Positions 1,466 through 39,186 of a stretch of 64,000 nt of DNA are shown here, one piece after another. Both the position numbers and the translations under genes were made by a program. The stretch spans positions 18,965 to 82,964 of the forward strand of contig JBMNER010000004.1 of the NCBI GenBank assembly GCA_050948885.1. Reading direction: 5' to 3'. This DNA is from Bacilli bacterium. Its GTDB lineage: Bacteria; Bacillota_I; Bacilli_A; RF39; UBA660. The notes below the pieces were generated by a model. It saw only the letters and a list, made by a program, of their open reading frames with translations. It ran no database searches and was not told the origin of the DNA. Positions within the stretch are counted from its first letter, which is position 1. Every line of letters starts with the position of its first letter.

Positions 1466-2572
1466 TTATAGAAAGTGACGACGCTGATTATTAAATAGGG
1501 CTTCTTTAATAATACCGCCACCTAAACATTCATCCTCAGCATAAAAAACACAAGCTTGTCCTGGTGTAACGGCTTTTATTTTTTGCGGATATAAAACCTT
1601 AATAGTATCATTAGTTAAATATTCTAAAGTAACCGCTTGTGGTGATTGACGATAACGAAATTGTGCCAGACACTGCTTTGGCTTATGATTTCCTAACCAA
1701 TTAACGTTTTCAATAATGGCCGCATCACTATATAAAAATTCATTCTTATCCCCAAGGGCCACATATAAAATATTTTGTTTTAAGTCTTTACCAACTACAA
1801 ATAGTTTTTCTTGTTGACCACCAACATTTAAGCCCCGACGTTGTCCAATCGTATAATTCATTAATCCTTGGTGCTTACCAATTGTTTCCTTGGTTGTTAA
1901 ATTAACAATAGGACCTGGTTTAATGGGTAAATAGTTACGCAAAAAATTAGTAAATTTACGTTCGCCAATAAAACAAATACCAGTTGATCCCTTTTTGGTG
2001 GCGGTGATTAAATTATTTTCAGCGGCAAACCTTCTAACTTCCTGTTTGGTTAAATCCCCAATAGGAAACAAAACATCTTGTAATTGTTTTTTGGAAAGTT
2101 GTGATAGAAAATAAGTTTGATCTTTGTTCTTGTCAAGGGCACGATATAACTTACCGTCAACTAAACGGGCATAGTGTCCAGTGGCTACAAAATCAGCCCC
2201 TAGTCTTTTAGCTTCTTTAATAAACAAATCAAACTTAATATATTTATTACACATAATATCAGGGTTAGGAGTTCGCCCTTTTTTTAATTCAGTTAAAAAA
2301 TAAGTAAAGACATAATCCCAATATTCTTTGACAAAATCCACCCGCTGTAATTTAATCTTCAGTTTAGCACACACAGAGGCGGCATCATTATAGTCTTGCT
2401 CCTGTGGACAAATAAAATCATGCAGATGGGGGTTTCCTAAAACATCATTATTTATGGTGCTATCCCAGTTACGCATAAATAAACCGATGACTTGATACCC
2501 CTGTTGTTTTAATAATAAAGCGGCTACCGATGAATCAACCCCGCCACTCATTCCGACTACTACTGTTTTCAT
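1466..2572 (-). CDS. mnmA: tRNA-specific 2-thiouridylase MnmA
   Basis: PP-loop motif VVVGMSGGVDSSVAA and a full-length MnmA-like sequence. Confidence 0.95.
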   Translation of the reverse strand: MKTVVVGMSGGVDSSVAALLLKQQGYQVIGLFMRNWDSTINNDVLGNPHLHDFICPQEQDYNDAASVCAKLKIKLQRVDFVKEYWDYVFTYFLTELKKGRTPNPDIMCNKYIKFDLFIKEAKRLGADFVATGHYARLVDGKLYRALDKNKDQTYFLSQLSKKQLQDVLFPIGDLTKQEVRRFAAENNLITATKKGSTGICFIGERKFTNFLRNYLPIKPGPIVNLTTKETIGKHQGLMNYTIGQRRGLNVGGQQEKLFVVGKDLKQNILYVALGDKNEFLYSDAAIIENVNWLGNHKPKQCLAQFRYRQSPQAVTLEYLTNDTIKVLYPQKIKAVTPGQACVFYAEDECLGGGIIKEALFNNQRRHFL

Positions 2573-2607
2573 AATATCACCTATTATTATTATACCATGT
2601 TAACAAA

Positions 2608-3228
2608 TTAAGGTAAAAAAAATCTAATAATATTCGGGATGACAAAAACAGTATATAAAATAACGATACTAGTTAGAATAAGCGTCATACTTAGAATTTT
2701 AAGGTAACGGTTCATTATCTCAGCAAAATTAATGGTTTTTGATTTAAGTAGAGCTAATAGTAGATTGATAGAAAAAGTAACCGCATAATAACCTAAAATC
2801 ATCGTTATAATTACAGTAATAATATAATGTGGGAAGATATAAAGTAAAGCAATGAAGAGTCCATATATTTTATATTGATAGATGATGCTAGTAATACCAA
2901 AGCCAATAATAAAACCTTTAAAAAAGAGAAAAAAGAGAATTAGAGGTAACCCAATAATTGATAACCCTAGTAACCATAATAAAATAATATAGGAAAAATT
3001 AGCTAAAAAGTTATTTTTTAAAGCCCATAAATAATTTAAGTTATTATCTTTAATACTATCAAAATAAGCCTTAACTTTATTAATTACCAATAGTTTGTCA
3101 TGGTTGTCCAAAATACTCATAAATAAAGAACCACAAAAACAACCAGCGAGAATTAAACCAAAAATAAAAGCATAGCCACGTTTACGCCGGGATAACTCTT
3201 TTTTAAACTCTTGGTATATGGTAATCAT
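2608..3228 (-). CDS. SpoIIM-like (DUF95 family) polytopic membrane protein
   Basis: About 5 predicted TM helices. Size and N-terminus resemble stage II sporulation protein M. Family assignment is from memory. Confidence 0.4.
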   Translation of the reverse strand: MITIYQEFKKELSRRKRGYAFIFGLILAGCFCGSLFMSILDNHDKLLVINKVKAYFDSIKDNNLNYLWALKNNFLANFSYIILLWLLGLSIIGLPLILFFLFFKGFIIGFGITSIIYQYKIYGLFIALLYIFPHYIITVIITMILGYYAVTFSINLLLALLKSKTINFAEIMNRYLKILSMTLILTSIVILYTVFVIPNIIRFFLP

Positions 3229-3324
3229 CTTATCACCCTTTAACTAATAATATTAATAACAAGGTATTTTATGCTTGGCAAAAGAGGCAAATAATATTAT
3301 AATTTTGTTATGAGGTGATTGACA

Positions 3325-3414
3325 ATGAATAAAAAAGTAACTAAAGTAGTCGCATATATTTTAATCTTTGGTTTGTTATTATCGATATTATCCAGTATTT
3401 TACTTTTATTTTAA
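3325..3414 (+). CDS. Small hydrophobic peptide (29 aa; MNKKVTKVVAYILIFGLLLSILSSILLLF), not in the ORF track
   Basis: GAGGTGA ribosome-binding site 6 nt upstream. A single TM helix. A perfect palindromic terminator follows directly. Confidence 0.3.
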   Translation: MNKKVTKVVAYILIFGLLLSILSSILLLF

Positions 3415-3418
3415 TGGA

Positions 3419-3440
3419 AAAAGACTCATATGAGTCTTTT
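3419..3440. terminator. Perfect 22-nt palindrome AAAAGACTCATATGAGTCTTTT; bidirectional rho-independent terminator between the small + ORF and spoIVB
   Basis: Perfect inverted repeat with an A-run on one side and a T-run on the other. Confidence 0.6.
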
Positions 3441-3441
3441 T

Positions 3442-4449
3442 CTAATTTTTTGCTTCCTCCAGCATCCATTTGAGATAAATTCCATAACCTTTCTTGGAAT
3501 CATCAATAATAACGTGGGTCACGGCCCCTATTATCTGATTATTTTGAATAATGGGGCTACCACTCATGCCTTGCACTACTCCCCCAGTGACATCTAATAA
3601 CTTATCATCAATAATTTCAAATAAAATGTTTTTAAATTTTTGATGGTCATTGTTATTTAGTTTAATAATATTAATATCAAATGCTTCCACCTTTTGTTCG
3701 GTTAAAACAGTATAAATCGTTGCGGGTCCCAAGGTTACTTCACTCGGTTGGGCTACTTTTAAGCTTGGCCGATTAGGTAACGCTCCGGTATAAGCGCCAA
3801 AAACCCCAGAGACGGTATTATTATAAATTGAACCTAAAATCTTATCGGCATAAAAGCGGGCATTTTTTTCGCCAGGACTACCACGAATACTTTTTTCAAT
3901 CCCAACGACATCAGATTTAAAAATTTTCCCATCTTTTACTTCAATCTTTTGGCCAGTTGTTTTTTCTATAATTTCATGTCCTAACGCACCAAAAGTTTTA
4001 GTATTAGGGTCAATATAGGTTAAAGTACCAATCCCATTGACACTGTCTTTTACGTATAAGCCAGTTTTGTAAACATTATCATTATGTTTAGCTAGGGTTA
4101 AAATGGTTTCTGAGAAAACATTGTTCCGTTGATATCTAATAATTAAATTAGTATATTGTTTACTTTTGTTAATTTCCGATACCATATCAGAAATAGTATA
4201 AACATCAGCATTATTAATGGCGATAATTTTATCACCAATTCGTAACCCAGCATCTTTTCCCGGATACTCACCATTAACCTTATAAAGTCCGACGATAATA
4301 ATACCTTTAGAATTAATTTGAATACCAATATTTTCCCCACCAGGAATAACATAAGCGGAATAAGCAAAGACAAAGGATGGAATAATATAAAGGACTAGGA
4401 GAAAAGCATAAGCAATGTTTTTAAATTTTTTTAAAAACATTCTTGTCAT
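3442..4449 (-). CDS. spoIVB: SpoIVB peptidase (S55) with PDZ domain
   Basis: N-terminal TM/signal segment, a PDZ-like segment (GLRIGDKIIAINN), GALGHEI and a GMSGSPI serine-peptidase motif. Confidence 0.8.
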   Translation of the reverse strand: MTRMFLKKFKNIAYAFLLVLYIIPSFVFAYSAYVIPGGENIGIQINSKGIIIVGLYKVNGEYPGKDAGLRIGDKIIAINNADVYTISDMVSEINKSKQYTNLIIRYQRNNVFSETILTLAKHNDNVYKTGLYVKDSVNGIGTLTYIDPNTKTFGALGHEIIEKTTGQKIEVKDGKIFKSDVVGIEKSIRGSPGEKNARFYADKILGSIYNNTVSGVFGAYTGALPNRPSLKVAQPSEVTLGPATIYTVLTEQKVEAFDINIIKLNNNDHQKFKNILFEIIDDKLLDVTGGVVQGMSGSPIIQNNQIIGAVTHVIIDDSKKGYGIYLKWMLEEAKN

Positions 4450-11568: not shown

Positions 11569-12690
11569 TTACCACCAATTAGATATAAATTGTATTTCCT
11601 CGGTAGTTAAAACTCGATTATAAATACGTATATCATCAATCGCCCCATGAAAAGGTAAACCTGGGGTGTAAAAGTGATCACCTATTTTAAAAGGAAAACT
11701 TACATCCATCTTTTGTATACCACCTATTACTTCCGCTTCAAGGTTGCCATCTATATAAAGAGTATTTTTGTCGGTATTTTTATCACACACGACTACAACA
11801 TGGTGCCACTTACCCCTTAAATCGGTATTACCTTTTAAATCAAGTCTACTAGGCCACCAAAACCGTAAAGTTCCATTTGTATAGCCTTCCAAGTTAAAAC
11901 TAATCTTCTTATTATAGTTACCAATAATAACACCAACGGGTTCCTCGTTTGCCACATTATCAAATTTAACCCACGCCGAAATAGTTAGTTCCTTAGATAA
12001 GCCCCAGAGCGTCCTACTAGTAATTTCAATATAACTATTACCATTAAAATAATAGGCTTTATTCGCATCACCAAAGCGGTCTGGGCATGGGGTAGCGCCC
12101 GTAACAGTACCATGATTTAAATTGCCTGAGTAATCATCCGCATTACCATCAAACTTATACCAGGCAATAAGACCAGTATTAATTATACCGACATGTTCTT
12201 CATTATTATTATATAAATAATTAATATTAATCCCATAATCACCGGGAATATCAATATGCTCAATGGCAATAATTAGTTTAAAAAGAGCATTTTCTCTATT
12301 TTTATCAGTGATTGGATATGACTCTTGTTTTATAACAAAGTCAGTAATATAACTTTCTTCAACTAAATGATATTCATTATCGCCGTAGGTAATTATATTA
12401 TCATCAATATTAACCTCTAATCTTTTAGAGCCAATATTAGAATAATTAATTAAAATGCAATTTTGTTGATCTGGGCAATTTATAATCTCCTCAACAATAT
12501 TATTAGTAAGATCAGCATTAATATCTTTAGTTAGATTAACTTGAAGGTTAGTGAGTTCCCCCTTGATTATAGTAAACTGTTGTTGTTCACGAACATTAAA
12601 AATAGTCGTCATTAGAAAATAACTAATCATACTTAAAAAAATAAACCCAATTAATAATTCAAAAACGGTAAAACCTTTATTATTAAACAT
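11569..12690 (-). CDS. Prepilin-type (class III signal peptide) protein with a C-terminal LamG / concanavalin-A-like lectin domain
   Basis: N-terminus MFNNKG|FTVFELLIGF has G at -1 and E at +5. The C-terminus carries LamG motifs AYYFNGNSYIEI, WHHVVVVCD, LYIDGN and DDIRIYNRVLTTEEI. Confidence 0.7.
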   Translation of the reverse strand: MFNNKGFTVFELLIGFIFLSMISYFLMTTIFNVREQQQFTIIKGELTNLQVNLTKDINADLTNNIVEEIINCPDQQNCILINYSNIGSKRLEVNIDDNIITYGDNEYHLVEESYITDFVIKQESYPITDKNRENALFKLIIAIEHIDIPGDYGININYLYNNNEEHVGIINTGLIAWYKFDGNADDYSGNLNHGTVTGATPCPDRFGDANKAYYFNGNSYIEITSRTLWGLSKELTISAWVKFDNVANEEPVGVIIGNYNKKISFNLEGYTNGTLRFWWPSRLDLKGNTDLRGKWHHVVVVCDKNTDKNTLYIDGNLEAEVIGGIQKMDVSFPFKIGDHFYTPGLPFHGAIDDIRIYNRVLTTEEIQFISNWW

Positions 12691-12719
12691 ATGCCCTCCT
12701 CATGAAATAAGTTAATATA

Positions 12720-15101
12720 TTAATTTTCCAGTAAATAAATATACTGTACTTCTTTATCCGATAGAGCGCGGTTATAAATACGAACCTCATCAATTTTGCC
12801 GTAAAACTGGCGCGCTAAACTTTCCGCCCCAATATTTAAAGAAGCAGAAATAACGCCACCACCAGTTGTGGTAACGGTTTTCAGTAACTCGCCATTTATA
12901 TATAAACGGTTATGATTTCCATCCCAAGAGGTACAAGTAAAAGTCCATTTATTTAAAGGAATAACGCCACCCCGAGTAGAATGATAACCAGCGGGAGTAG
13001 TCCCATAATAATGGGACTGCAAGGAACCATCATTAGCTAAAGTCAAATAATAACCATTCGGATTAGTACTTTGTAAAATGGTGCTTCTCTCTAAGGGATA
13101 CTTTGTGGGATTAACCCAGGCACAAAGAGTTAATGTACCACCAACTGGTGATGTGTTAGTTAAAATATATTTCCAACCACTAATACCAAACTGATAAGTT
13201 CCTTCGCCTACCTTACCGTCTTTAACCCATTTTGGAGTAGTCGCCGGTTGTAAGGTTCCATTATTACCTTTTGACGAATAATCCTTAACAATTCCGGAGC
13301 GAGTACCATTAACAAAAGGACTCACATAAGTTTTGGCCTCCATTTGCGGGGCACAAAACCAAGTTCTAGTACCAGGATCTCCAATGGCGCCCGCATAAGA
13401 AAAATTAAAAGATAAACTATCTGATTGACTATCAGTAGGATTAACAAAACTTGGCCAAACTATACGATGCCAGTTACCATCATTAGGAACGGTAATATAT
13501 TCACTCCAATACCTACCTACCTCCGCGTTATCTGCCGTATAGAATCTAATACTAAAATTAGAATCCTTTGTTTTTATATATAAAGATACTGTATAGGTTT
13601 CACCAGCTACTTGCGGGGCATAATCACCATACGAAAACCAATAACCCGCTGTATTCCCCCGATCAAAACCAACCACTGGAGAAGTAGGAACTTCCAAAGG
13701 GGGTAATATCTCATTATAAACAATATTTGTTTGATAGGTTTTAGTCCACCCTGTATCTAAATTAGTATTAGTAATAACATTCTTGGTTGGTTCTTGAAAA
13801 TCATCAAACTTATAATGACCTATTAACCCATCAGTTATATTAATATCCCAATCTTCAACCAACATTCTTAAATCGGCTAAAGTATACCAGTCATCTCCAT
13901 AGTAATAAAGAGTTCTCGTTTCAATTACGGGATACATACCAGTTGGGGCTTCACCATCTATCCACTCGGAGAAAGTATCCTCAGTCGCCCAAGAAAACCC
14001 AGTCACATTAGATAGATGTTGATCATTATCACTATAATCATTCAGAGTGGTTCCCTTTCCTTCACTTAATTTATAGTAATATAATAAATTTCCAGACTTA
14101 TTAATATTGTTAGTATTATACATACTATGACTAATTTCTACCGGGGTTAATACCTTTGACCACACCTTAACTTCTTTAATTCCACCATCAAAATGATATC
14201 TATCGTTTAAATACCAACGAGCCAGTCTAAATGAAGAGCCAGCAGGACTATAGTAAGTTGGTGCCGTTCCTTCATATTTACCATTAATATATAATTTTGA
14301 ATTAGTACCATCAAAAGTAACCGCAATATGATGCCATTGTCTTACTGAAGGATATCCCCTATCACTAAAATAGTTAACGGCCCCATCCCCAGCATTTAAA
14401 ATTATTCTATTAGTGGAAAAATATAAATTAAGATTTTTTGTCGTCTCTAAAGCCCATAACATTTTACGATCCCAAGTATTCGCAAAGGCCCACATTTCAA
14501 TTGTTATGGTCGCGGGAATGGTTTTATTAATCGTTATATAATTCGTTAACCCATTAAAAGTAGCATATCCCCTTTTATAACGGTATTGTTGTTTTGTGGG
14601 ATAAGCATATTCACTCCCTAACGTAAAGGAAGAAAAAGTACCGTCGTTAAGTTCTAAAATAATGCGGTATTCACCTGGATTATCCTTGTTTTTTTGTAGA
14701 TATTTTAGATACTGTTTAAAACGATGAGAAAAAGCACTCGGATTATTATTAATTATTGTTTGTAAATCATAAGGCGTTAAAATAGCCATTTTAATATCCA
14801 TTTCTCCTATTAAGCCCTCACAATAAGAGGTAAATTCAATAGGGGCTGAACAAGTAGTCAAATTAAAATAAGAATTGTTATTTAAAGTAGCCATTATTTC
14901 ATCATAGTTATCTTTTGCTAAAAAGGTAGCAATATTACGAGCTTTATAAACATTAGAAACCTTACTATAAGTTTCAAACTCTCGATATTGAGCAAAAATA
15001 AGCAAAAACTGACTAAAAACAAATAAAAAAGCCACCATTAGTATCACTGATACAACCAAAGTTTCAGTTAATATAAACCCTTGTGAACTACTTCTTTTCA
15101 T
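12720..15101 (-). CDS. Giant (793 aa) prepilin-type protein with two LamG lectin domains and a central jelly-roll-like module
   Basis: N-terminus MKRSSSQG|FILTETLVV. First LamG domain has WHHIAVTFDG, LYINGK and IKEVKVWSKVLTPVEI. Second has LNKWTFTCTSWDG, LYINGELL and DEVRIYNRALSDKEV. AGGAGTGA ribosome-binding site. Confidence 0.7.
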   Translation of the reverse strand: MKRSSSQGFILTETLVVSVILMVAFLFVFSQFLLIFAQYREFETYSKVSNVYKARNIATFLAKDNYDEIMATLNNNSYFNLTTCSAPIEFTSYCEGLIGEMDIKMAILTPYDLQTIINNNPSAFSHRFKQYLKYLQKNKDNPGEYRIILELNDGTFSSFTLGSEYAYPTKQQYRYKRGYATFNGLTNYITINKTIPATITIEMWAFANTWDRKMLWALETTKNLNLYFSTNRIILNAGDGAVNYFSDRGYPSVRQWHHIAVTFDGTNSKLYINGKYEGTAPTYYSPAGSSFRLARWYLNDRYHFDGGIKEVKVWSKVLTPVEISHSMYNTNNINKSGNLLYYYKLSEGKGTTLNDYSDNDQHLSNVTGFSWATEDTFSEWIDGEAPTGMYPVIETRTLYYYGDDWYTLADLRMLVEDWDINITDGLIGHYKFDDFQEPTKNVITNTNLDTGWTKTYQTNIVYNEILPPLEVPTSPVVGFDRGNTAGYWFSYGDYAPQVAGETYTVSLYIKTKDSNFSIRFYTADNAEVGRYWSEYITVPNDGNWHRIVWPSFVNPTDSQSDSLSFNFSYAGAIGDPGTRTWFCAPQMEAKTYVSPFVNGTRSGIVKDYSSKGNNGTLQPATTPKWVKDGKVGEGTYQFGISGWKYILTNTSPVGGTLTLCAWVNPTKYPLERSTILQSTNPNGYYLTLANDGSLQSHYYGTTPAGYHSTRGGVIPLNKWTFTCTSWDGNHNRLYINGELLKTVTTTGGGVISASLNIGAESLARQFYGKIDEVRIYNRALSDKEVQYIYLLEN

Positions 15102-15118
15102 TTAATTCACTCCTATTG

Positions 15119-15147
15119 TTGATAATATCTTGATATTATTATATAAT
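15119..15147 (+). promoter_or_regulatory. Sigma-A-type promoter for the ComGA-like ATPase gene: -35 TTGATA (15119-24), 17-nt spacer, -10 TATAAT (15142-47)
   Basis: Near-consensus hexamers with optimal spacing. A divergent minus-strand promoter (TTGACT, 17 nt, TATTAT) at about 15140..15171 would serve the LamG-pilin operon. Confidence 0.5.
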
Positions 15148-15189
15148 AATATTATGATAAATACTAGTCAAATTTAAAGGGGTCATAGT

Positions 15190-16551
15190 ATGATTAGAAC
15201 ATTCGATTATGAAAAGGTTCCCATTGTTGAAGTTGTTAACGAAATATTAATTGATGCGGTTAAAAGGGGCGCAAGTGATGTTCATTTTGACCCTCATGAT
15301 GAGCACCTAAGAGTACGTATTAGGATAGATGGGGAATTAATGGACTATTCTTTTGTTCCTAACACTTTAAAAAGAAATTTAATTACCAGGGTTAAAATTA
15401 TTGCGGGCATGAATATTACTGAAAGTAGATTGCCCCAAGATGGTTCTATAAAAACGAATTTAAAAGATACTAACTTAGACCTGCGGGTTTCTAGTTTACC
15501 AACTAATTTAGGTGAAAAAATAGTGATTCGGATTCTTGATTATACGATGAGTTTAAAAGGGCTTGAATATTTAGGTTTTAGTGAAAAAAACTATCGTAAA
15601 ATATCAGAGATTATTAAAGTTCCTAATGGTATTATTTTGGTTACTGGGGCCACTGGTACTGGTAAGTCAACCACCGTTTATGCGATTTTGCAGAAGTTAA
15701 ATTCGCGGGATCGTAACCTAATCGCCGTTGAAGATCCAATTGAAATGGAGCTTGATGGGATTAATCAAGTCCAAGTTAATAGTGATATTGGTTTAACCTT
15801 TGCGAATTGTTTAAGATCTATTTTAAGGCAAGACCCTGATATTATTATGATTGGGGAAATTCGGGACGTTGAAACAGCTAAAATAGCCGTGCGAGCATCA
15901 ATTACCGGTCACTTAGTACTATCAACCTTACATACTAATAACTCACTTAATACCATTGAGCGGTTACTGGATATGAATGTTGAGAGATACTTATTAGCGA
16001 GTGCTTTAACTGGGATTGTTTCTCAAAAACTGGCCCGAAAATTATGTTCTAAATGTCAAAAGTTAAGAGCCGTTAATGAATATGAGAAAACAATCTTTAA
16101 AACCGTACTAGGGATTGATATTAAAGAGATACCAACAACTGGTAGTTGTGGGGCTTGTTCTAACGGTTATAAAGGGAGAGTAGCGATTCATGAAGTACTA
16201 GAAATAAACCAAAATATTAGAGATGCGATTGCCGATGGAGTTCGCAAAGATATTTTAAGGGAATTGGTTTATAAATCAGATGTTACTACCCTACTACAAG
16301 ATGGTTTAGAAAAAGTAATCGCTGGGGAAACAACCTTAGAGGAAATACTAAAAATTATCGAATTTGAAGATGAAGGAGCGGTTGATATAAAGGATAAAGA
16401 TAATGCGCTTCGAAATGCGATTATAGATAGCGTTAAATCTGGTAACCAACCAGATAAAAAAACAAGTGACAAAACAAATAATTATGATGATTCGGTAAAT
16501 TATAAAGAAACCTTCGAAGAAAAAACGGAGATACCGGAATTATTACTATAA
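15190..16551 (+). CDS. Type II secretion / type IV pilus assembly ATPase (GspE/PilB/ComGA family) with C-terminal tetra-Cys motif and an acidic ~70-aa tail
   Basis: Walker A GATGTGKST, Asp box, His box, CSKC...CGAC zinc-finger motif. AAAGGGG ribosome-binding site. Confidence 0.9.
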   Translation: MIRTFDYEKVPIVEVVNEILIDAVKRGASDVHFDPHDEHLRVRIRIDGELMDYSFVPNTLKRNLITRVKIIAGMNITESRLPQDGSIKTNLKDTNLDLRVSSLPTNLGEKIVIRILDYTMSLKGLEYLGFSEKNYRKISEIIKVPNGIILVTGATGTGKSTTVYAILQKLNSRDRNLIAVEDPIEMELDGINQVQVNSDIGLTFANCLRSILRQDPDIIMIGEIRDVETAKIAVRASITGHLVLSTLHTNNSLNTIERLLDMNVERYLLASALTGIVSQKLARKLCSKCQKLRAVNEYEKTIFKTVLGIDIKEIPTTGSCGACSNGYKGRVAIHEVLEINQNIRDAIADGVRKDILRELVYKSDVTTLLQDGLEKVIAGETTLEEILKIIEFEDEGAVDIKDKDNALRNAIIDSVKSGNQPDKKTSDKTNNYDDSVNYKETFEEKTEIPELLL

Positions 16552-16554
16552 AAA

Positions 16555-16575
16555 AGAGGATTAATAAAATCCTCT
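16555..16575. terminator. Hairpin AGAGGATT-aataa-AATCCTCT between the convergent ATPase and prepilin-peptidase genes
   Basis: Perfect 8-bp stem flanked by A5 and T3. Stronger for the minus strand. Confidence 0.5.
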
Positions 16576-17343
16576 TTAGTATTTAATTAATAACCGGTAA
16601 AAGTCTAGGGCTTTGATTTGTAATAAATATAATAAAATGGCTGAAAAACTAAGGAAAGGACCAAAGGTAATGATATTGGTCTTTTTATAATATAATATTA
16701 AAAGGGAAATAGGAAGAGCGATAAAAGCGCTGATAACAGTAACAAAAATACCTAATTCAACCCCTAAGACCAGCCCAATAAAAAACATTAATTTAACATC
16801 GCCACCACCAAGAGATTCTTTTTTAAAAAGATAGTCACCTAATAACTTAAGTAAAAACATAAAAATAAAAGAGGCACCACCATTAAGTATCGCAATTAAG
16901 GCATAGGGTAAGCCCTTAAAAATAGTAATTTCAACAATAATAAGGAAAGCTGATAAAAGAATAATTTCATCAGGAATAATCAGGTACTTTAAATCACTAA
17001 TGATAATAATAATTAAACCAGAAATAAAGGTTAAAGCGATTATTAGTTCATAACTTAAACCAAACACCATAAAACTAAACATAAATAATAAGCCAGTTAA
17101 TAACTCAAAGGCGGGATACAAAAAAGAAATTTTCATCTTACACTTTGTACACTTACCAAGTTGAAAAAGAAAAGAAAAAAGAGGAATTAATTCCCAAAAA
17201 CCTAGTCTCTTTTGACAAGATGGGCAATGCGAAGGTGGTAAAATAATAGACTGATGCATTGGTAATCTAAGGCCAACAACATTAAAAAATGAGCCACAAA
17301 TTAAACCAAAGAGAAAGAAAATAAAGCTGTAGTAAATAGTCAT
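16576..17343 (-). CDS. Prepilin peptidase (A24 family; PilD/ComC)
   Basis: N-terminal CPSC...CTKC tetracysteine box, polytopic membrane protein with a GGGDVKL-containing catalytic region. Confidence 0.85.
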   Translation of the reverse strand: MTIYYSFIFFLFGLICGSFFNVVGLRLPMHQSIILPPSHCPSCQKRLGFWELIPLFSFLFQLGKCTKCKMKISFLYPAFELLTGLLFMFSFMVFGLSYELIIALTFISGLIIIIISDLKYLIIPDEIILLSAFLIIVEITIFKGLPYALIAILNGGASFIFMFLLKLLGDYLFKKESLGGGDVKLMFFIGLVLGVELGIFVTVISAFIALPISLLILYYKKTNIITFGPFLSFSAILLYLLQIKALDFYRLLIKY

Positions 17344-17357
17344 AGATAACTCCTTTT

Positions 17358-19259
17358 TTAAAATTGCTCATACATAGAAAACATTGGAACCACAATTGAT
17401 AATAAAATAATACCAACAATTATTGATAATATAACAATCATCACCGGTTCAATAAAATTTTTCACTTGGGTAATCGCAAGACGATGTTGTTCTTGGTAGT
17501 AATCACCTACCCGATTCATCATTGACCCTAGTTCCCCGGTTCTCTCCCCGGTAACTAACATTTCATAAGCGACTGATGGAAAAGCCCAATTATCCTTAAA
17601 AGCCGCCGATAAAACGTCACCGCGCGCTACATTCGTAATAGAATCTTCAATAATAAATTTATAAATTTCATTATCGGTAATTTTACTTAAAATTTCCATA
17701 CTGGCAGTAATATAGACATTATGAGTTAATAAGGAACCGAAAGTTTTAGTAAATATAGTCACCTCATTATAAATAATAATCTTACCGATAACCGGTAAAT
17801 TCATCAATACCCATTGTACTAGATATCTGAAAAAACGAACAGTTCTATATAGTAATCTTAATAAAATAATAACAATAATAAGACCACCAACTAAATAGAA
17901 AATATTTTTACGGAGAAAATCACTAGTATTGATAACTATTAAAGTAATTGCCGGAATATCAGCTTCCATATTCCTAAACATGTCAACAAACTGCGGCACA
18001 ATGTAAATCATAACAAAAACAATAACCCCAGTGGCCATAACTAAAACCCCCGTTGGGTATAACATCGCTGATACCATCTGACTTCTCGTTTTTTGAGCCG
18101 AATCATAATATTCAGCCATATCATCCAATACCTCGGATAACTTACCGGTCATTTCCGCCGTTTTAATCATATTAATAAGTAAACGGGGAAAAGCAATATT
18201 TTGTTTTTCCAGCGCTTCACTAAAATTATCCCCCATCACTAACTCATAAACAACCGCTTGTAAGACTTTAGTAAGTCGCCGATTTTTAGTTTGACGAGAT
18301 AGAATTTTAACCGCGTCAACTAAAGGGATTCCCGCTTTTAAATAAGTAGATAACTGAGTTAATAAAAAAGTTAAATCTTTTAGTTTAATGCGGTAATTTT
18401 TAATGGCGCCAGAATGAAAGAATTGAATCCATTTTGAGGTTTTAATCTCATAAACTTCAGCGCCTTCGGCTAATAAGTAGGAATGAACATCCATTTTAGA
18501 GAAAGCATCAAAATAACCACTAATAATCCGCCCCTCGGCATTTTTAACTAGATACTTATAAGTTACTTTAGCTTCTGATCGTTCTTCATCTTGTTCTAAA
18601 AAGTCAACTAGTAGAACTTTTCGCTGAATATCACGGCGATTGCGGATTTGTTTAACAATGGTGAGATTATTATACCTTCTAATAAAATATTTTTTAACAT
18701 CTTGCCACCATATTTTAGCGTTTTCTCTTTTAATCATAAAATATTGTTTAAGACCCGCTACTAATTTTCGTGGATAAGCTAAAATTGGAAAAACAAGTCT
18801 ATCTTTTATAAAAAGAATTATTTTTATGATAACGTTTTTAATACCAATAAGAAGTTGACGAAAACCATTAAATATTTGTTGCGTGATAAAAAACAGACCC
18901 CGGCCAAAATTTATCACTATCATAATAATAAATTGGTAGATTTTTTTAATAAGATGGGAAATCCCCACAATAATATATTTAAAAAAGAGTAAAATTAAAT
19001 AAATTAATTTATAAAATCCTTGATAAATAATGATTAATAAAGTTTTTAAACCAACACCAAAATAAAGAAAGATTAATGATATTGACTTAAAAAGAAAACT
19101 AACTAATAGTTTTGTTTGCTTGATAATTAACTTTACTAAATAAAATAAACCCCGACCAAAGAATTTAATAATAAGAACTGGGATGGTTATTAAATATGAA
19201 ACAAAATAATAGACATAAATAAAAGGACGTAGTAAAACCGCGAAGTTCATATCTAACAC
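17358..19259 (-). CDS. GspF/PilC/ComGB-family platform protein with an unusual ~220-aa polytopic N-terminal extension
   Basis: The C-terminal ~400 aa show the GspF double-domain pattern (two cytoplasmic domains separated by TM helices). The N-terminal extension repeats the motif FGRGLF and is very hydrophobic. Confidence 0.85.
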   Translation of the reverse strand: MLDMNFAVLLRPFIYVYYFVSYLITIPVLIIKFFGRGLFYLVKLIIKQTKLLVSFLFKSISLIFLYFGVGLKTLLIIIYQGFYKLIYLILLFFKYIIVGISHLIKKIYQFIIMIVINFGRGLFFITQQIFNGFRQLLIGIKNVIIKIILFIKDRLVFPILAYPRKLVAGLKQYFMIKRENAKIWWQDVKKYFIRRYNNLTIVKQIRNRRDIQRKVLLVDFLEQDEERSEAKVTYKYLVKNAEGRIISGYFDAFSKMDVHSYLLAEGAEVYEIKTSKWIQFFHSGAIKNYRIKLKDLTFLLTQLSTYLKAGIPLVDAVKILSRQTKNRRLTKVLQAVVYELVMGDNFSEALEKQNIAFPRLLINMIKTAEMTGKLSEVLDDMAEYYDSAQKTRSQMVSAMLYPTGVLVMATGVIVFVMIYIVPQFVDMFRNMEADIPAITLIVINTSDFLRKNIFYLVGGLIIVIILLRLLYRTVRFFRYLVQWVLMNLPVIGKIIIYNEVTIFTKTFGSLLTHNVYITASMEILSKITDNEIYKFIIEDSITNVARGDVLSAAFKDNWAFPSVAYEMLVTGERTGELGSMMNRVGDYYQEQHRLAITQVKNFIEPVMIVILSIIVGIILLSIVVPMFSMYEQF

Positions 19260-24333: not shown

Positions 24334-24867
24334 ATGCGTTTACGAACCGTGAAAATTATTAATGTTATTGGCATCTTTCTAATTAGTTTTTTATTTCATC
24401 AACTTTATCAATGGTTCCCAAATAGATTTATAGCCATTTTCTTTCCTGTTAATGAAAGCATTTTTGAACATCTAAAGTTAATCTATAGTGCGGTAATCTT
24501 TTGGATGTTAATTGAGTATTTCATATTACAACCGATTAAACATAATAACCTTATATTAGCGTCTCTAACTACCGCCGTTGCCACTAATATAATCTTTTTA
24601 GTCTTGTTTTTACCAGTTTACAATGAAATAGGACATGATCTATTAATAACCCTAATTATTTATTTTATAGCCATTGTCTTAGGTCAACTAATTAGCTATT
24701 ATATTCTTACTTTAAATACTAATTATAAAATATTAAACCTGGTTAGTTTAATACTAATTCCCCTTATTTTTACCATGCTTGGTTACTTAACCTATCACCC
24801 GCCAAAAACCCCATTTTTTTATGATCAATACCAGGATAAGTATGGTATTTATAATTTTTATCGTTAA
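24334..24867 (+). CDS. Hypothetical polytopic membrane protein
   Basis: AAGGAG ribosome-binding site. About 5 TM helices. No family recognised. Confidence 0.5.
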   Translation: MRLRTVKIINVIGIFLISFLFHQLYQWFPNRFIAIFFPVNESIFEHLKLIYSAVIFWMLIEYFILQPIKHNNLILASLTTAVATNIIFLVLFLPVYNEIGHDLLITLIIYFIAIVLGQLISYYILTLNTNYKILNLVSLILIPLIFTMLGYLTYHPPKTPFFYDQYQDKYGIYNFYR

Positions 24868-25127
24868 CTTTTCTTTAAATAAGTAGTTATTTTTTTAATT
24901 TGATCGGCTTTTAAAAATTTACATTTTGGTAAAGCTTCCAGCGTGGTTAAAGCATTCGTAGCCATCCCTTGACAACTACCATAACCACAAACATTACAAT
25001 TATAGCCGGGTAACATTTTAACTATTTCCTCAATCGCTTTATCATTTTTAAATAAATAAAAATAAACTAAACTAAGAATGATACTAATGATAAATGAACT
25101 TAAAGTAATAAGTAATACGCCGGTCAT
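24864..25127 (-). CDS. rnfB: Minimal RnfB (about 87 aa): TM anchor plus N-terminal Cys-cluster domain only, no ferredoxin domains; start set to the ATG with a GAAAAGAGG ribosome-binding site
   Basis: LPGYNCNVCGYGSCQGMATNA matches the RnfB N-terminal Fe-S motif (CxxCGxxxC). Last gene of the rnf cluster. Confidence 0.6.
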   Translation of the reverse strand: MTGVLLITLSSFIISIILSLVYFYLFKNDKAIEEIVKMLPGYNCNVCGYGSCQGMATNALTTLEALPKCKFLKADQIKKITTYLKKS

Positions 25128-25128
25128 C

Positions 25129-25257
25129 TTAAAACCTCTTTTCACATGATTTATGACAATTAAAACACTGATTGTTATCTTTTTTTCCTTGATAGTTTAA
25201 ATGATATAAATAAATAGTTATGATAGATAAGCAAGTTATAAAAATAAAGCCGATCAT
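25129..25257 (-). CDS. Unannotated 42-aa ORF (MIGFIFITCLSIITIYLYHLNYQGKKDNNQCFNCHKSCEKRF) between rnfA and rnfB
   Basis: GGTGG ribosome-binding site. Its start lies 1 nt after the rnfA stop and its stop lies 1 nt before the rnfB ATG. A TM helix is followed by a CxxCxxxC tail. Confidence 0.3.
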   Translation of the reverse strand: MIGFIFITCLSIITIYLYHLNYQGKKDNNQCFNCHKSCEKRF

Positions 25258-25258
25258 T

Positions 25259-25828
25259 TTAACCACCAATAAAGCGCCCAAAAATCATGGACATGATACC
25301 CGCCGTAATTAACGCGATGGGGGTCCCTTGAAACCCTTTTAAAATTGGATTAATATTTAATTTTTCTCTAATACTAGAGAATATATATAATACTAAAGAG
25401 TAACCAAGCCCACTACCAAGGGTAAAGACAAGGGTTTGCGTAAAGGTATAATTATTAGCAGCAGTTAATAAAACAGCGCCTAAAATAGCACAGTTAGTAG
25501 CGATTAGTGGTAAATAGATACCCAATAAAGCTTGAATTTTGGGAAAGTATTTTCTGATTATCATTTCGGTTAACTGAACTAAAGAAGCAATAATTAAAAT
25601 AAAAGTAATCGTTCTTAAATATTCAATATCATAAGGGAGTAATAGATAATGATACAGAAAGAAACAAAGTATATTAGCCAGTAACATGACTAAAGTCACA
25701 CAAATTCCCATACCAAGTGCCCCTTGTTCTTGATTAGAAACACCTAAAAAGGAACAAAGACCTAAGAATTTAGTTAAAATAATATTTTCCACCAATATAC
25801 TTGATATTAATAAAGCCATTAAACTCAT
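25259..25828 (-). CDS. rnfA: Rnf complex subunit A
   Basis: RnfA/NqrE-family polytopic membrane protein (GLCSFLGVS, LPLIATNCAILG). Confidence 0.9.
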   Translation of the reverse strand: MSLMALLISSILVENIILTKFLGLCSFLGVSNQEQGALGMGICVTLVMLLANILCFFLYHYLLLPYDIEYLRTITFILIIASLVQLTEMIIRKYFPKIQALLGIYLPLIATNCAILGAVLLTAANNYTFTQTLVFTLGSGLGYSLVLYIFSSIREKLNINPILKGFQGTPIALITAGIMSMIFGRFIGG

Positions 25829-26463
25829 CGTTCTTCCCTCCTTTTGTTTTGAATCATCTTTAAGATGCCACTTAAAAGCCCGAGAGAGATAAAAGCGCCA
25901 GCCGGGGTGATTAGTAACCCAACCGGGAAAATATTAGTATTTGGTATTAGTTGATAAACCATCTTATAACCGGTTATCTTACTTAAATTATCCATAATAG
26001 TGATGGTGTTATTTCCTAATACTTCTCTAAAGATGGCCAACATAACAATGCCAATCATAAAACCTAAACCAAAGCCAACCGCATCAACAATACTAACTAA
26101 AACGCCTTCCTTTGAGGCAAAACCAACCGCTCGCCCTAAAACCAGACAATTAACCACAATTAAGGGAATATAAATACCTAAAATACGATATAAATCAGGG
26201 GTATAAGCCTTTAAAACTAACTCGGTGATAGTCACTAAAGTGGCAATAATTAATATATATACGGGAATCCGAATATGATTGGGAACCAAGTTTTTAATAA
26301 GGGAGACCATTAAATTAGAACCTAATAAAACAAATAAAACCGATAAACTCATCACAATAGCGTTTTCCACTGTCGTCGAAACGGCTAAAACAGGACATAG
26401 CCCTAATAATAAAACAAAAATAGGATTTTCTTTAATTACTCCTTTTAAAAAATTATCTTTCAT
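25825..26463 (-). CDS. rnfE: Rnf complex subunit E
   Basis: RnfE/NqrD family (LGLCPVLAVST, IPLIVVNCLVLGRA). Confidence 0.9.
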   Translation of the reverse strand: MKDNFLKGVIKENPIFVLLLGLCPVLAVSTTVENAIVMSLSVLFVLLGSNLMVSLIKNLVPNHIRIPVYILIIATLVTITELVLKAYTPDLYRILGIYIPLIVVNCLVLGRAVGFASKEGVLVSIVDAVGFGLGFMIGIVMLAIFREVLGNNTITIMDNLSKITGYKMVYQLIPNTNIFPVGLLITPAGAFISLGLLSGILKMIQNKRREER

Positions 26464-26591
26464 AATAAGACCCCCCTATTAATATACTCAATTTGCGGTT
26501 TAGTGGTTTCATAAACCCAAAATAACAAAAGAGAACATAAAAAACCAATAATAGTAAAAACAATGATGCCTTTTAATACTTCTTTTTTCAT
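26460..26591 (-). CDS. Unannotated 43-aa ORF (MKKEVLKGIIVFTIIGFLCSLLLFWVYETTKPQIEYINRGVLL) between rnfD-G and rnfE
   Basis: Its ATG overlaps the rnfD-G stop (ATGA) and its TGA overlaps the rnfE ATG. It has a single TM helix that resembles an RnfG-type N-terminal anchor. Confidence 0.3.
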   Translation of the reverse strand: MKKEVLKGIIVFTIIGFLCSLLLFWVYETTKPQIEYINRGVLL

Positions 26592-28036
26592 TTATATTCC
26601 TCTTTTCGTTTATGATAATCATCCATTACTTTAATTGCCATTTGTTTTAAATAGTTAGTGGTGTAGGTAGCCCCAGCTATGGTATCTAGTTTATCTAAAT
26701 CAGCTTGATTATGAATAATTTTCTTTAAATAATCCGCGTTTTCTATTTGTGACCACACATCTTCTTTTTGTTCGATGATTATAATATCCGTTATTTTATT
26801 ATCAACATGATTAATAGTAATATCGGCTTTAATGATACCGTGGAAAGCCTTATGAGTGACTTGATAAATAGTTTGTTGATCTTGCCTTTTAATATTAAGG
26901 ATTTGAAAGGATAAATCTTTATCATCTACCTTCTTAATATTAAAAGCGATATAACCAGTAGTACTAGTTATCAACATTAATAGAATTAAATTTAAAATAA
27001 GCAGCCATCTTAAATTAAACCGCACCTTAGCCCCTATTCGGTCAATAATAAAAACTAACATATTCATAGTTAAAATAGCGGTGGCGACCCCTTCTGGATA
27101 ATTAGTTAAGAATCTAAAGGCAACCGTTAATAACCCTAATAACAAGGCATAGATAACTTGCCCGTAAGGAGTCGTCGGACTAGTCACTGGGTCAGTGGCC
27201 ATAAAGATAGCCCCAAACATTAAACCACCACTCAAGATATGAAATAATGGGTACCAAAGACCAAGTTGATGATAATAACCAATGGCACCAGTAATCATAA
27301 AGACAGTAGCTAGATAAATAACGGGAATACGCCAATTAATAACTTTAGTAATAATTAAATATAATAAACCTAGTAAACATAAAAGGGCACTGGTTTCACC
27401 CAAAGAACCAGGTATAAAACCTAAGAGAAAATCCTTTAAGTTACCATATGGTCCTACAATATTATGATAAGTATCAAGGTAATTTAAACCACCAAGATTA
27501 GTAAGCGGGGTAGCACTCCCCAACGTATCTATTTCCATTTTACTTAAGTAACCACCGGCTTTGGTAATGGCTGTTTGATAAGTACCCATAATAAATAAAT
27601 AACCAACTAAAGCGGGGTTAAAAATATTATTTCCAAAACCACCAAATAACATTTTACCAATGATAGTCGCAAAAATAGTTCCTATTATTAAAATAGAAAA
27701 AGGAGTATGGACGGGAATAATAAGAGCCAGAAATAAGCCAGGGAAAATAGCGTATGAATATTTTAGATAAGCTTTTAATTCATTTTTCTTATTTAGAAAA
27801 AAGCAAGCAAAAAGGATTTCACTGCCTAATGAAGTTATGATACCAACGATGATTAATAATATTGGTTTAAAAGCATCAAATAGTGTCCCATACCCTTTAA
27901 AATATGGATAAAAGCCATTCTTATAACAACTAAAAATAATAATTGGTAGTAAGGCGATAATTAAGTGGTTCATCATCTTTGAGGTGTTATATTTACTTTT
28001 AATATGTGGGCCATTATCAACCACAAACTTAGTCAT
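26588..28036 (-). CDS. rnfD: Fused RnfD-RnfG: RnfD membrane core (~335 aa) followed by a TM anchor and an FMN-binding domain
   Basis: RnfD/NqrB-like polytopic N-terminus ending ..LVFIIDRIGAKV, then the hydrophobic helix LLILNLILLMLITSTTGYIAF, then an FMN_bind-like domain carrying DTIAGATYTT (the flavin-attachment Thr motif). Confidence 0.85.
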   Translation of the reverse strand: MTKFVVDNGPHIKSKYNTSKMMNHLIIALLPIIIFSCYKNGFYPYFKGYGTLFDAFKPILLIIVGIITSLGSEILFACFFLNKKNELKAYLKYSYAIFPGLFLALIIPVHTPFSILIIGTIFATIIGKMLFGGFGNNIFNPALVGYLFIMGTYQTAITKAGGYLSKMEIDTLGSATPLTNLGGLNYLDTYHNIVGPYGNLKDFLLGFIPGSLGETSALLCLLGLLYLIITKVINWRIPVIYLATVFMITGAIGYYHQLGLWYPLFHILSGGLMFGAIFMATDPVTSPTTPYGQVIYALLLGLLTVAFRFLTNYPEGVATAILTMNMLVFIIDRIGAKVRFNLRWLLILNLILLMLITSTTGYIAFNIKKVDDKDLSFQILNIKRQDQQTIYQVTHKAFHGIIKADITINHVDNKITDIIIIEQKEDVWSQIENADYLKKIIHNQADLDKLDTIAGATYTTNYLKQMAIKVMDDYHKRKEEYK

Positions 28037-29313
28037 TATTTCACCACCTTTTCTTTGGCGACTTTAACATATTCGCGCACATCTACTTTTGAGGGACATA
28101 TATATGAACATAACCCACACTCAATACATCTTCTTGGTTCAAGGTATTGTAACCGGGTTTTATCATCAATAGCATTTTTAATTAAAACGGGGGCTAAGTT
28201 AACAGGACAAATATCAACACACTTGCCACAACGCATACAATTTATATACGGATTATTAGTTTTATTAGGCATAATAACAATACCATTTAAATTATTACTA
28301 ACTACTAAATCATCACTACTAATAGCCTGCCCCATCATGGGCCCCCCGGCAATCAGCTTTATGTCAGCTTGATCATGATATCCGCCAATAAAAGTTAATA
28401 TATCCTTAATATCAGTCCCTATTTTAACGATGATATTTTGGGGCTTTTTAACTGATTCACCGGTAATAGTAATCATCTTTTCCATTACTGGTTTATGATA
28501 TTGTAAGGCTTCATATATGGCATAGATAGTAGAGACATTATTAACAATAACGCCTTTTTCACTAGGTAAACGATGATAGTTAAGCTTTAAAAGATGGCGC
28601 ATGATATAACCTTCCCACCCCGAGCGAAAAAGTGGTGGTGATAATAATATTTTAATATTAGGATAAGTACCAATATATTTAATAAATTCATTTTTAAGGG
28701 CCTCTTGTCCTTTTTCAATCACAATAAAACCTTCTTTAGCCGGCATTATTTCCATGATTAAGTCTAAGCATTCCAATATTTCCTCCGCTTTTTCGCGCAT
28801 CAGAACATAATCAGTTGTTATATAAGGCTCCCCTTCGGCCCCATTAACTACAATGGTCTTAATGGGTACATCAACATCATATTTCACATAAGTCGGAAAC
28901 CCACTACCACCCATACCAACCACACCACAATCTTTTAAACGGGCGATAAATTCTTTTTTCGTCCACCGCTTTGGTGATTTCGCCTTTAAAATAACAGGGT
29001 CTAATTTTTCTTTATAATCATTTTCAATCTTAACGCAAGATACTTTCTCGCCATTTAAATATAATTTTTCTACTATTCCTTTAACTTTACCACTGACACT
29101 AGAATGAATCGGAAGATGAAAATGATCATCCCGCATACCAATGACAGTACCTTTATAAACAAAATCCCCTTCCTTAACTAAACAGGAACATTTTAAATTA
29201 TCATAATTAGTCAGGGGAATATAAACATAATCTGGTTTTTTAAGTTTTAAGATACGGTTTTTAATGGACATCTTCTTATTCGGTGTTAATTTAATCTTTA
29301 CCACCATAATCAC
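28036..29313 (-). CDS. rnfC: Rnf complex subunit C (NADH-binding, two 4Fe-4S clusters)
   Basis: CMRCGKCVDICP and CIECGLCSYICP ferredoxin motifs. Strong AAGGTAAGGAG ribosome-binding site. Confidence 0.9.
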   Translation of the reverse strand: MIMVVKIKLTPNKKMSIKNRILKLKKPDYVYIPLTNYDNLKCSCLVKEGDFVYKGTVIGMRDDHFHLPIHSSVSGKVKGIVEKLYLNGEKVSCVKIENDYKEKLDPVILKAKSPKRWTKKEFIARLKDCGVVGMGGSGFPTYVKYDVDVPIKTIVVNGAEGEPYITTDYVLMREKAEEILECLDLIMEIMPAKEGFIVIEKGQEALKNEFIKYIGTYPNIKILLSPPLFRSGWEGYIMRHLLKLNYHRLPSEKGVIVNNVSTIYAIYEALQYHKPVMEKMITITGESVKKPQNIIVKIGTDIKDILTFIGGYHDQADIKLIAGGPMMGQAISSDDLVVSNNLNGIVIMPNKTNNPYINCMRCGKCVDICPVNLAPVLIKNAIDDKTRLQYLEPRRCIECGLCSYICPSKVDVREYVKVAKEKVVK

Positions 29314-33440: not shown

Positions 33441-34154
33441 GTGGTTACAATGTTAGTACATCTCATCGCTTTTTTTAAATCATTTTTTTTCTTTACGGCT
33501 TCCTATAGTCACAATCTCTTTCCTGAACCACTTACAAAAGAAGAGGAAGAAAAATTAATAAAAGAGATGCAGCTTGGTGATAAGGAAGCCCGTAATAAAA
33601 TTATTGAGCATAACCTTCGTTTAGTCGCCCATATTGTTAAAAAATTTGATAAGAAAAGAAACGATATTGATGATTTAATTAGTATTGGAACGATTGGTTT
33701 AATTAAAGGAGTTGATTCTTACTCTAGTAAACATGGAACCAAAATAACTACTTACTGTGCCCGCTGTATTGAAAATGAAATATTGATGCATTTTCGAAGT
33801 GATAAAAAAAATGTCCGCAATGTCAGTCTTAATTCACTAGTTGGTTATGATAAAGATGGTAATGAAATTGCTTTTATTGATATTATTAAAACCCCCCACC
33901 CTGATTATGTCGAAGCCATTCATACTAAAAATAATATTAATTTATTAAAAAAATATATGCAGGGCTTAAATGAACGAGAGAAAAACATTATTACTAAACG
34001 CTATGGATTAGATAATCAGGATGAATTAACGCAAAAACAAATTGCTCAAGAATTAAACATTTCCCGGAGCTATGTATCCAGAATTGAAAAAAGAGCTTTA
34101 ACTAAAATTTTAAAAGAATTTATTAAAAGTAAAAATTACTCATATTTTGAGTAA
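33441..34154 (+). CDS. sigK: Pro-sigma-K, uninterrupted
   Basis: Pro-sequence and NLFPEPLT match the B. subtilis pro-sigmaK NAFPQPLS. IEHNLRLVAHIVKKF is identical. YCARCIENEILMHFR and ISRSYVSRIEKRAL also match. Confidence 0.85.
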   Translation: MVTMLVHLIAFFKSFFFFTASYSHNLFPEPLTKEEEEKLIKEMQLGDKEARNKIIEHNLRLVAHIVKKFDKKRNDIDDLISIGTIGLIKGVDSYSSKHGTKITTYCARCIENEILMHFRSDKKNVRNVSLNSLVGYDKDGNEIAFIDIIKTPHPDYVEAIHTKNNINLLKKYMQGLNEREKNIITKRYGLDNQDELTQKQIAQELNISRSYVSRIEKRALTKILKEFIKSKNYSYFE

Positions 34155-39149: not shown

Positions 39150-39186
39150 CTTATAGAAATCTATGTTTAATTGCCCTTTTATAGAC

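Follow-up and report, generated by a model that had tools for sequence, protein, structure and literature searches.

We analysed a 64-kb stretch of DNA from an uncultured member of the Bacilli (contig JBMNER010000004.1; 64,000 nucleotides, hereafter the window), in which five genes at positions 11569–19259 encode a PilB/GspE-type ATPase, a PilC/GspF-type platform protein, an A24 prepilin peptidase and two prepilins. The prepilins, of 373 and 793 residues, each appear to be a small minor pilin fused to bulky LamG modules. Together with the conservation of the locus in relatives, this leads us to conclude that the genes probably specify a chromosomal, vertically inherited type IV filament, with a glycan-binding adhesive tip complex made of two modular minor pilins.

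Both prepilin genes lie on the minus strand. The smaller protein, which we call pilin 2 (11569–12690), begins MFNNKG/FTVFE, and the larger, pilin 1 (12720–15101), begins MKRSSSQG/FILTE, where the slash marks the predicted cleavage site, before F7 and F9, respectively. In each, a short polar leader ending in glycine precedes a phenylalanine, a glutamate at position +5 and about 20 hydrophobic residues. These are the class III signals that a preliminary description of this DNA had reported. In pilin 2, a pilin module of residues 1–165 (nt 12196–12690) is connected by a linker (residues 161–172) to a LamG module of residues 174–373 (nt 11569–12171), with a Laminin_G_3 match at residues 216–367 (E 5.5e-26). 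Pilin 1 likewise opens with a pilin module (residues 1–165, nt 14607–15101) and a linker (residues 166–175), followed by a first LamG domain (residues 176–335, nt 14097–14576; Laminin_G_3 at 186–324, E 4.4e-20), a connector of about 100 residues (336–436, nt 13794–14096), a central β-sandwich (residues 437–598, nt 13308–13793) and a second LamG domain (residues 599–793, nt 12720–13307; Laminin_G_3 at 646–786, E 2e-29). The central β-sandwich gave sub-threshold matches only, to a phage head spike fibre domain (NF048003, 32.6 bits where the cut-off is 36) and to CBM_4_9 (E 0.033). An N-terminal class III pilin module, the carrier, with one or more additional Laminin_G_3 domains joined to it by a linker, the cargo, is the architecture that defines a modular pilin. 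A match to the TafC fimbrial protein was discarded, as it reached 35 bits against a cut-off of 410 (NF052521) and involved the LamG part alone; the TafC family belongs to haloarchaeal Tat-dependent fimbriae, which are another system.

Structure prediction agrees with this division. The model of the 373-residue protein (mean predicted local distance difference test score, pLDDT, of 84) has an N-terminal helix of 55 residues (9–63), a pilin-type β head (66–160) at a pLDDT of about 90, a short low-confidence linker and a LamG sandwich (174–373), a predicted lollipop pilin fold with a grafted module. In the AlphaFold2 model of the 793-residue protein (mean pLDDT 69), the N-terminal helix spans residues 8–45, and the LamG domains and central sandwich have ten-residue block means mostly of 70–93, with some weaker stretches. 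By Foldseek, this model matches LamG/LNS domains and domain 4 of AbnA. The LamG modules that the preliminary description had proposed, one in the smaller protein and two in the larger, are thus found by both Pfam and predicted fold, and the third sandwich of the larger protein is found by predicted fold. Its proposal of a pilin helix followed by lectin modules holds in full for the 373-residue protein and for the LamG domains of both, but confidence in the pilin head of the 793-residue model is low, since no more than four homologs extended over it. Sequence searches of the PDB with both pilins returned LamG-domain proteins only, and no pilin.

Public records describe both proteins merely as "LamG domain-containing protein", and the Pfam N_methyl model (PF07963) scores 16.9 bits against a threshold of 21.2 for the 793-residue protein and is absent from the 373-residue one. 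Both observations would suit ordinary membrane-anchored or Sec-secreted LamG surface proteins that resemble class III prepilins by chance. We consider this extremely improbable, however, as Gly−1, Phe+1, Glu+5 and the ensuing hydrophobic tract of about 20 residues are invariant in alignments of both carrier families, and as, in all the relatives examined, both genes adjoin those of the ATPase, platform and peptidase. The confidently modelled helix and head of the 373-residue protein argue in the same direction, as do family members of 160–175 residues that have no cargo and are simply pilins.

A full HMMER scan of 1.84 billion representatives (a library clustered at 50% identity) with residues 1–200 of the 793-residue protein found 498 relatives, 144 of them at E ≤ 1e-10. 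About half of the 150 relatives listed are stand-alone pilins of 150–195 residues that align end to end with residues 1–163. Within this pilin 1 family, the Gly-Phe pair and Glu5 are invariant (GF.L.E), a cysteine pair is nearly so, and a conserved C-terminal strand has the consensus YRLIVEFNDGTFASI. With the ComGD model, 30 of 40 family members give a weak match (best E 7.7e-7), almost wholly in the N-terminal helix. Residues 1–165 of the 373-residue protein represent a second pilin family, with a weak ComGE match (2.6e-4), and the two families are remotely related to each other (hhalign probability 85.6%). Narrower surveys yielded less: a pilin 2 profile found 3 species representatives in the genome collection, a metagenome scan with a narrower pilin 1 alignment found 4 loci, and the contigs bearing one stand-alone pilin (P0147) are only about 1 kb long, so that its gene context is uninformative. 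Because both carrier families occur without cargo, as proteins of 160–175 residues, at the same locus in relatives, we take the 373- and 793-residue proteins to be minor pilins themselves, with a complete pilin module predicted in residues 1–165 of each. The preliminary description had them stand in place of canonical minor pilins. To call the latter absent is misleading, since the locus does encode them, as fusions to cargo.

The locus is conserved among relatives, in the order dnaG-rpoD-trmK-yqfQ, pilC-pilD-pilB, pilin 1, pilin 2, ylbJ-ylbL...mutS, which we saw in at least seven places, some of them partial. At these loci the pilins come with or without cargo. In locus L012, pilin 1 has 166 residues and no cargo, and pilin 2 has 511 residues with immunoglobulin (Ig)-like and glycine-rich parts. 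The reverse occurs in L003/L007 (UBA1423), with a pilin 1 of 647 residues and a cargo-free pilin 2 of 163. In L005/L006 the two proteins have 423 and 243 residues, the latter with an Ig-like module; in L004, pilin 1 has 422 residues and pilin 2 has 493, with a second copy of 172; in L013, both are glycine-rich, at 726 and 712 residues; and in L021, they measure 323 and 540 residues. The carrier modules are therefore constant, and the C-terminal cargo differs by lineage, being LamG, Ig-like, glycine-rich or a module shared with phage-virion-like proteins. Separately, at least seven modular pilins are encoded in an array in another Bacilli metagenome-assembled genome (GCA_036681025.1; L002 1612–11527); their cargo is Gly_rich_2 or LamG, and their carrier is of the major-pilin type.

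The module shared with phage-virion-like proteins is the central one of the 793-residue pilin. The cassette of this module and LamG recurs on a different carrier in two proteins, P0004 (from the L002 array) and P0006, whose pilin module is 43% identical to a 132-residue pilin of the window described below (for P0006, over 121 residues). The same cassette is found in metagenome proteins that have no pilin module (P0007, P0012, P0013 and P0014), and P0007, P0013 and P0014 match phrog_8510, a family of virion structural proteins. A PHROGs search with the central module alone gave no match. The phage link is indirect, because it is only these non-pilin homologs that match phrog_8510, and the similarity suggests that some cargo may be common to pilus tips and phage fibres.

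Cargo also differs at the level of strains. In a sister strain (L001/L019), whose pilins are 96–98% identical to those of the window, two tandem pilin pairs lie downstream of the ATPase gene (L001 1683–8029). The first pair comprises a 634-residue variant of pilin 1 without the central module and a 169-residue pilin 2 that is carrier only, and the second comprises proteins of 793 and 373 residues. At informative sites, the window follows copy A, through the promoter and the first 15 or so codons, to nt 15059, and copy B from nt 15048. Since identity switches from A to B between these positions, in codons 15–18 of the large pilin gene, one whole pair separates the two genomes, and the junction falls in the conserved sequence coding for the N-terminal helix. 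Between the small pilin gene of the window and the 169-residue copy, homology stops at nt 12196, the boundary of carrier and cargo. We found no prior description of the gain or loss of a pilin pair between strains. The extra pair of the sister strain is accompanied by an open reading frame (ORF) of 53 residues.

The three other genes of the cluster bear out the minimal filament core named in the preliminary description. The extension ATPase of the PilB/GspE family (453 residues; 15190–16551, plus strand) has a T2SSE domain (PF00437, E 8.6e-124) and CxxC...CxxC motifs, and is without the long domains found at the N-termini of PilB and GspE. Its closest solved relatives in a PDB sequence search are GspE, PilB and PilF (E about 1e-100). 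The prepilin peptidase of the PilD/ComC type (255 residues; 16576–17343, minus strand) has A24_N_bact (PF06750, E 7.3e-32) and Peptidase_A24 (PF01478, E 8.6e-14) domains. The platform protein of the PilC/GspF type (633 residues; 17358–19259, minus strand), whose start codon is probably the ATG at 19250, has two T2SSF domains within residues 234–631 (PF00482, E 9.9e-54 over two stretches). An ATPase of the T2SSE family, a platform with two T2SSF domains, an A24 peptidase and subunits with class III signals together constitute the core of a type IV filament. Neither a motif scan nor a looser one found further prepilin-like ORFs within the cluster. No paralog of the ATPase, platform or peptidase occurs in the 64 kb, and thus no PilT was seen there; nor did we see PilM, PilN or PilO-like proteins, which with PilT belong to the type IVa pili of monoderms such as Clostridia and Streptococcus sanguinis, among the ORFs that were read as N-terminal translations or scanned with Pfam, some ORFs being unscanned. 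The preliminary description had likewise listed PilT and PilMNO as missing, and had placed ComEA and ComEC on the same chromosome; both are in the window, at 52711–53409 and 50613–52763, respectively.

Within the cluster, pilC and pilD are co-oriented, pilB converges with both of them, and the prepilin genes diverge from pilB. The divergent spacer between the prepilin operon and pilB (15102–15189, 88 bp) contains promoter-like hexamers on both strands, TTGATA-17-TATAAT at 15119–15147 on the plus strand (11 of 12 positions) and TTGACT-17-TATTAT at 15171–15143 on the minus strand; both are consensus matches only, and the number of such patterns in this AT-rich spacer is not above shuffled expectation. 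A hairpin between the convergent pilB and pilD (16553–16577), with a 10-bp stem, AAAGAGGATT...AATCCTCTTT, and a T-run on the minus strand, is terminator-like on both strands by pattern match only.

Both the platform protein and the ATPase have terminal regions outside their Pfam domains. The platform begins with an extension of about 230 residues (18560–19259, minus strand) made of hydrophobic and basic repeats of about 20 residues. It is also present in relatives (proteins of 560–673 residues), where the first 35 or so residues are conserved, and in L005 it is split, giving ORFs of 123 and 560 residues. We found no prior description of this extension. The ATPase ends in a charged, acidic tail of about 60 residues past the T2SSE domain (16360–16551, plus strand), and the length of this tail differs among relatives (proteins of 429–513 residues).

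A candidate for the major subunit lies elsewhere in the window. A six-frame motif scan found a canonical type IV pilin of 132 residues (44189–44587, minus strand), between uvrC and mutL, which begins MKRTG/FTLIE (MKRTG/FTLIELLAVIVIIG); a looser scan returned nothing beyond the three known prepilins. It passes the thresholds for N_methyl (29.4 bits) and TIGR02532 (30.2 bits), the major pilins MshA, PilA and PilE1 match it over the N-terminal helix, and it has a cysteine pair in its C-terminal half. The statement in the preliminary description that the two large proteins are the only pilin-like genes thus holds for the cluster, but this canonical pilin was missed. The gene is unlinked, 25 kb from the machine genes. 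An identical protein is found on at least 21 public contigs, with the order uvrC-pilin-mutL in all five places fetched. In a more distant relative (L009), a homologous pilin of 180 residues is encoded directly 3′ of the minor-pilin genes, and by analogy with this arrangement we infer that the 132-residue pilin is the major subunit of the filament. One scaffold that seemed to offer a different context for the 132-residue pilin (L017; GCA_900198705.1, FZPS01000101.1) was set aside, as the local order uvrC-pilin-mutL is unchanged; the scaffold is 1.09 Mb long, has runs of N and pieces of very different composition, and looks chimeric. L009 also carries a third pilin-like gene (within 2052–3614), which encodes a 304-residue protein with the N-terminal motif SG/IAIST, no Glu5 and a LamG-like C-terminus, and which the 180-residue major pilin immediately follows. 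It is of the cap-subunit kind that is missing from the window, where we found no counterpart.

The preliminary description called the machine ComG-type. The Com pilus of monoderms has eight components, ComGC, ComGD–GG, ComC, ComGA and ComGB, encoded by a comGA–GG operon and a distant comC (Mom 2023, PMC10790768). Like it, the locus described here offers only an ATPase, a platform, a peptidase and pilins, in a Firmicute with ComEA and ComEC, and the N-terminal helices of its minor pilins are weakly similar to those of ComGD and ComGE. The locus departs from it in the order and strands of its genes, in a peptidase gene that adjoins the platform gene instead of lying alone at a distance, in a candidate major pilin that is not ComGC-like and in minor pilins that carry large modules. 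The four minor pilins ComGD–GG (ComGG without Glu5) are not what the window shows, which is two, both with Glu5. The ATPase scored 271.5 bits with ComGA (NF041000, cut-off 300), against 468 with GspE and 466 with PilB over about 385 aligned residues, and the platform scored 136.1 bits with ComGB (NF041012, cut-off 240), against 285 with GspF. For both proteins, the GspE/PilB and GspF/PilC models give longer alignments and more bits per residue than the ComGA/ComGB models do. The 132-residue pilin reached 28.3 bits with ComGC (NF040999, cut-off 75), over the helix only (residues 4–39), and the matches of the pilin modules to ComGD and ComGE are far below cut-off. Curated equivalog cut-offs were reached for no system type, GspE and PilB included. 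A ComG-type assignment is therefore not supported, and the machine appears to be Com-like solely in being minimal. The classification of Denise et al. 2019 (PMC6668835) would probably place it among the "generic" type IV filaments.

A divergent DNA-uptake pilus, in which the two modular proteins take the roles of ComGD and ComGE and the cargo is a secondary decoration or binds DNA or cell-wall polymers, is nonetheless a possibility, which we hold to be somewhat unlikely. The minimal composition, without PilT or PilMNO in the 64 kb, would suit competence, as would ComEA and ComEC, the weak ComGD and ComGE matches, and a locus that is core and syntenic rather than accessory. Moreover, pilin 1 is cargo-free in many relatives, so that the basal function needs no lectin modules. 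However, ComEA and ComEC are widespread in Firmicutes regardless of pilus type. The cut-offs for ComGA, ComGB and ComGC were all missed, the gene order is unlike comGA–GG, two minor pilins stand against four, and the 132-residue pilin, with its cysteine pair in the C-terminal half, resembles ComGC in the N-terminal helix alone. Lineage-variable cargo of lectin and phage-virion-like modules also suits surface recognition better than DNA binding. An adhesive tip and a role in DNA uptake are not mutually exclusive.

The better scores of the ATPase and platform against GspE and GspF, and the lack of a retraction ATPase and alignment proteins in the 64 kb, would also be compatible with a short, wall-spanning pseudopilus that displays lectin modules, or with protein export akin to type II secretion. 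The Com filaments of Bacillus subtilis have been discussed as endopili (PMC10790768). Yet in no relative does the locus encode candidates for a secreted substrate, and a canonical pilin, the candidate major subunit, is present in the window, with a homolog that adjoins the minor pilins in L009. We judge such a structure decidedly unlikely, though sequence by itself scarcely separates it from an adhesive pilus.

Under the adhesive filament that we favour, the A24 peptidase would cut leaders of 5–8 residues after the glycine of all three prepilins, as their motifs predict, and the PilC-type platform and PilB-type ATPase would extrude a filament of the 132-residue pilin. The two minor pilins would prime or nucleate assembly on the platform and remain at the tip, as their cargo (about 630 and 200 extra residues) is too bulky for the filament body, while the major pilin polymerises beneath them. 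Placed there, three LamG lectin-type domains and a further β-sandwich would be displayed at the tip and could serve as an adhesin with multivalent binding, glycans being the likeliest ligands. The pilin modules of about 165 residues would be conserved carriers of exchangeable cargo, and the cargo of near-identical strains may differ through recombination inside the conserved sequence that codes for the N-terminal helix. An adhesive or ligand-binding filament, as put forward in the preliminary description, remains to our mind the most reasonable function, with a precedent in S. sanguinis (PMC8179133, PMC9934059).

Several points weigh against this reading. Both the expression and the function of the filament are predictions from sequence. 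A glycan as ligand is guessed from fold neighbours, and LamG domains bind proteins as well. In the 793-residue protein, the pilin head has a pLDDT below 50 at residues 38–176, and the 132-residue pilin is tied to the machine only by analogy with L009. Neither a retraction ATPase nor PilMNO is visible in the 64-kb window. Finally, two minor pilins are visible where characterised systems have three or four, and parts may therefore lie outside the window.

The single pil locus of S. sanguinis contains PilT and PilMNO-type genes, and its pilus has two major pilins and a third, non-modular minor pilin, PilA, without Glu5. The S. sanguinis minor pilins PilB, with a von Willebrand factor A module, and PilC, with Ig and concanavalin A-like lectin modules, form a cap, "like open wings", on the pilus, and their ligands are host proteins and sialylated or sulfated glycans (PMC9934059). 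The filament proposed here resembles it in being a monoderm type IV pilus with two modular minor pilins, whose bulky adhesive modules sit on small pilin modules, and in its proposed tip location and role in adhesion (Raynaud 2021, PMC8179133; Shahin 2023, PMC9934059). It differs in its minor pilins, of which two are seen, each with Glu5 and with LamG, in its unlinked candidate major pilin, and in that PilT and PilMNO are not seen in the 64 kb. Its pilin modules are also of other families, for which PDB sequence searches detected no match to S. sanguinis PilC. Other large minor pilins or adhesins at tips are CofB of enterotoxigenic Escherichia coli, GspK of the type II secretion system, ComZ of Thermus and PilY1/PilC of diderms (PMC8179133). 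They too present an effector domain on a carrier at the tip, but the folds and carriers appear to be unrelated, they were absent from our search results, and PilY1 is not a pilin.

The preliminary description supposed that pairing such pilins with a minimal machine was undescribed. The lectin-pilin principle is not new, however. The InterPro census by Raynaud et al. 2021 (PMC8179133) listed more than 1,200 modular pilins in 264 architectures, the commonest of which, found in 229 proteins, is a pilin with one PF13385 domain (IPR012902-PF13385); the form with two (IPR012902-PF13385-PF13385) is found in 9 (Dataset S1). S. sanguinis PilB and PilC are a characterised precedent. A literature search for LamG pilins returned nothing relevant. 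The locus is thus an example of the modular pilin as described, and not a new kind of machine. It differs from the census pilins in that both proteins would escape the count, as neither N-terminal motif reaches the Pfam N_methyl threshold, and in that the 793-residue protein carries a four-module cargo, including the module shared with phage-virion-like proteins. Pilins of this kind are overlooked by public annotation and by censuses that rely on motifs. What appears to be new is the pair of carrier families with a conserved locus in a clade of uncultured Bacilli, and the use of both minor pilins as carriers where apparently only two minor pilins exist; we found no prior description of either. 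The differences of cargo between lineages, and a sister strain that differs by one pair, are also new here.

If our inferences hold, a tip design of carrier and cargo that was worked out in one oral streptococcus is used clade-wide by uncultured environmental Bacilli, both minor pilins can be carriers, and cargo turns over even between strains. As a minimal model of how a tip complex primes assembly, a filament with only two minor pilins would be useful, and the cargo modules are candidate glycan-binding domains. The current understanding of type IV filaments would not change; a known principle is extended. A bolder claim would be that these genes define an unrecognised clade of type IV filaments built from six proteins (ATPase, extended platform, peptidase, one major and two minor pilins), simpler than the eight-component Com pilus and the sole filament of these Bacilli, with two minor pilins that act as a programmable tip, whose receptor-binding cargo is swapped by recombination in the conserved sequence coding for the N-terminal helix and is partly common to phage receptor-binding proteins. 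We think this unlikely.

The surroundings of the locus concern the host. Sporulation genes lie around it in the window (2608–4449, 33441–34154 and 38118–40224) and in the flanks of L001 and L005, and the host therefore appears to be an endospore-forming member of the Bacilli. SpoIIP was confirmed in the window by Pfam, and SpoIIM and a SpoIVB-type protein (Peptidase_S55) were identified in relatives from precomputed Pfam matches; the window counterparts of the latter two, the GPR protease and a sporulation-specific sigma factor are assignments by eye. A 402-residue protein with no Pfam match (32085–33293, minus strand) has an N-terminal signal or anchor and a thioredoxin-like CPHC motif. The G+C content of the host is about 31%, and an operon at about 24864–29313 was identified, by eye only, as Rnf-type.

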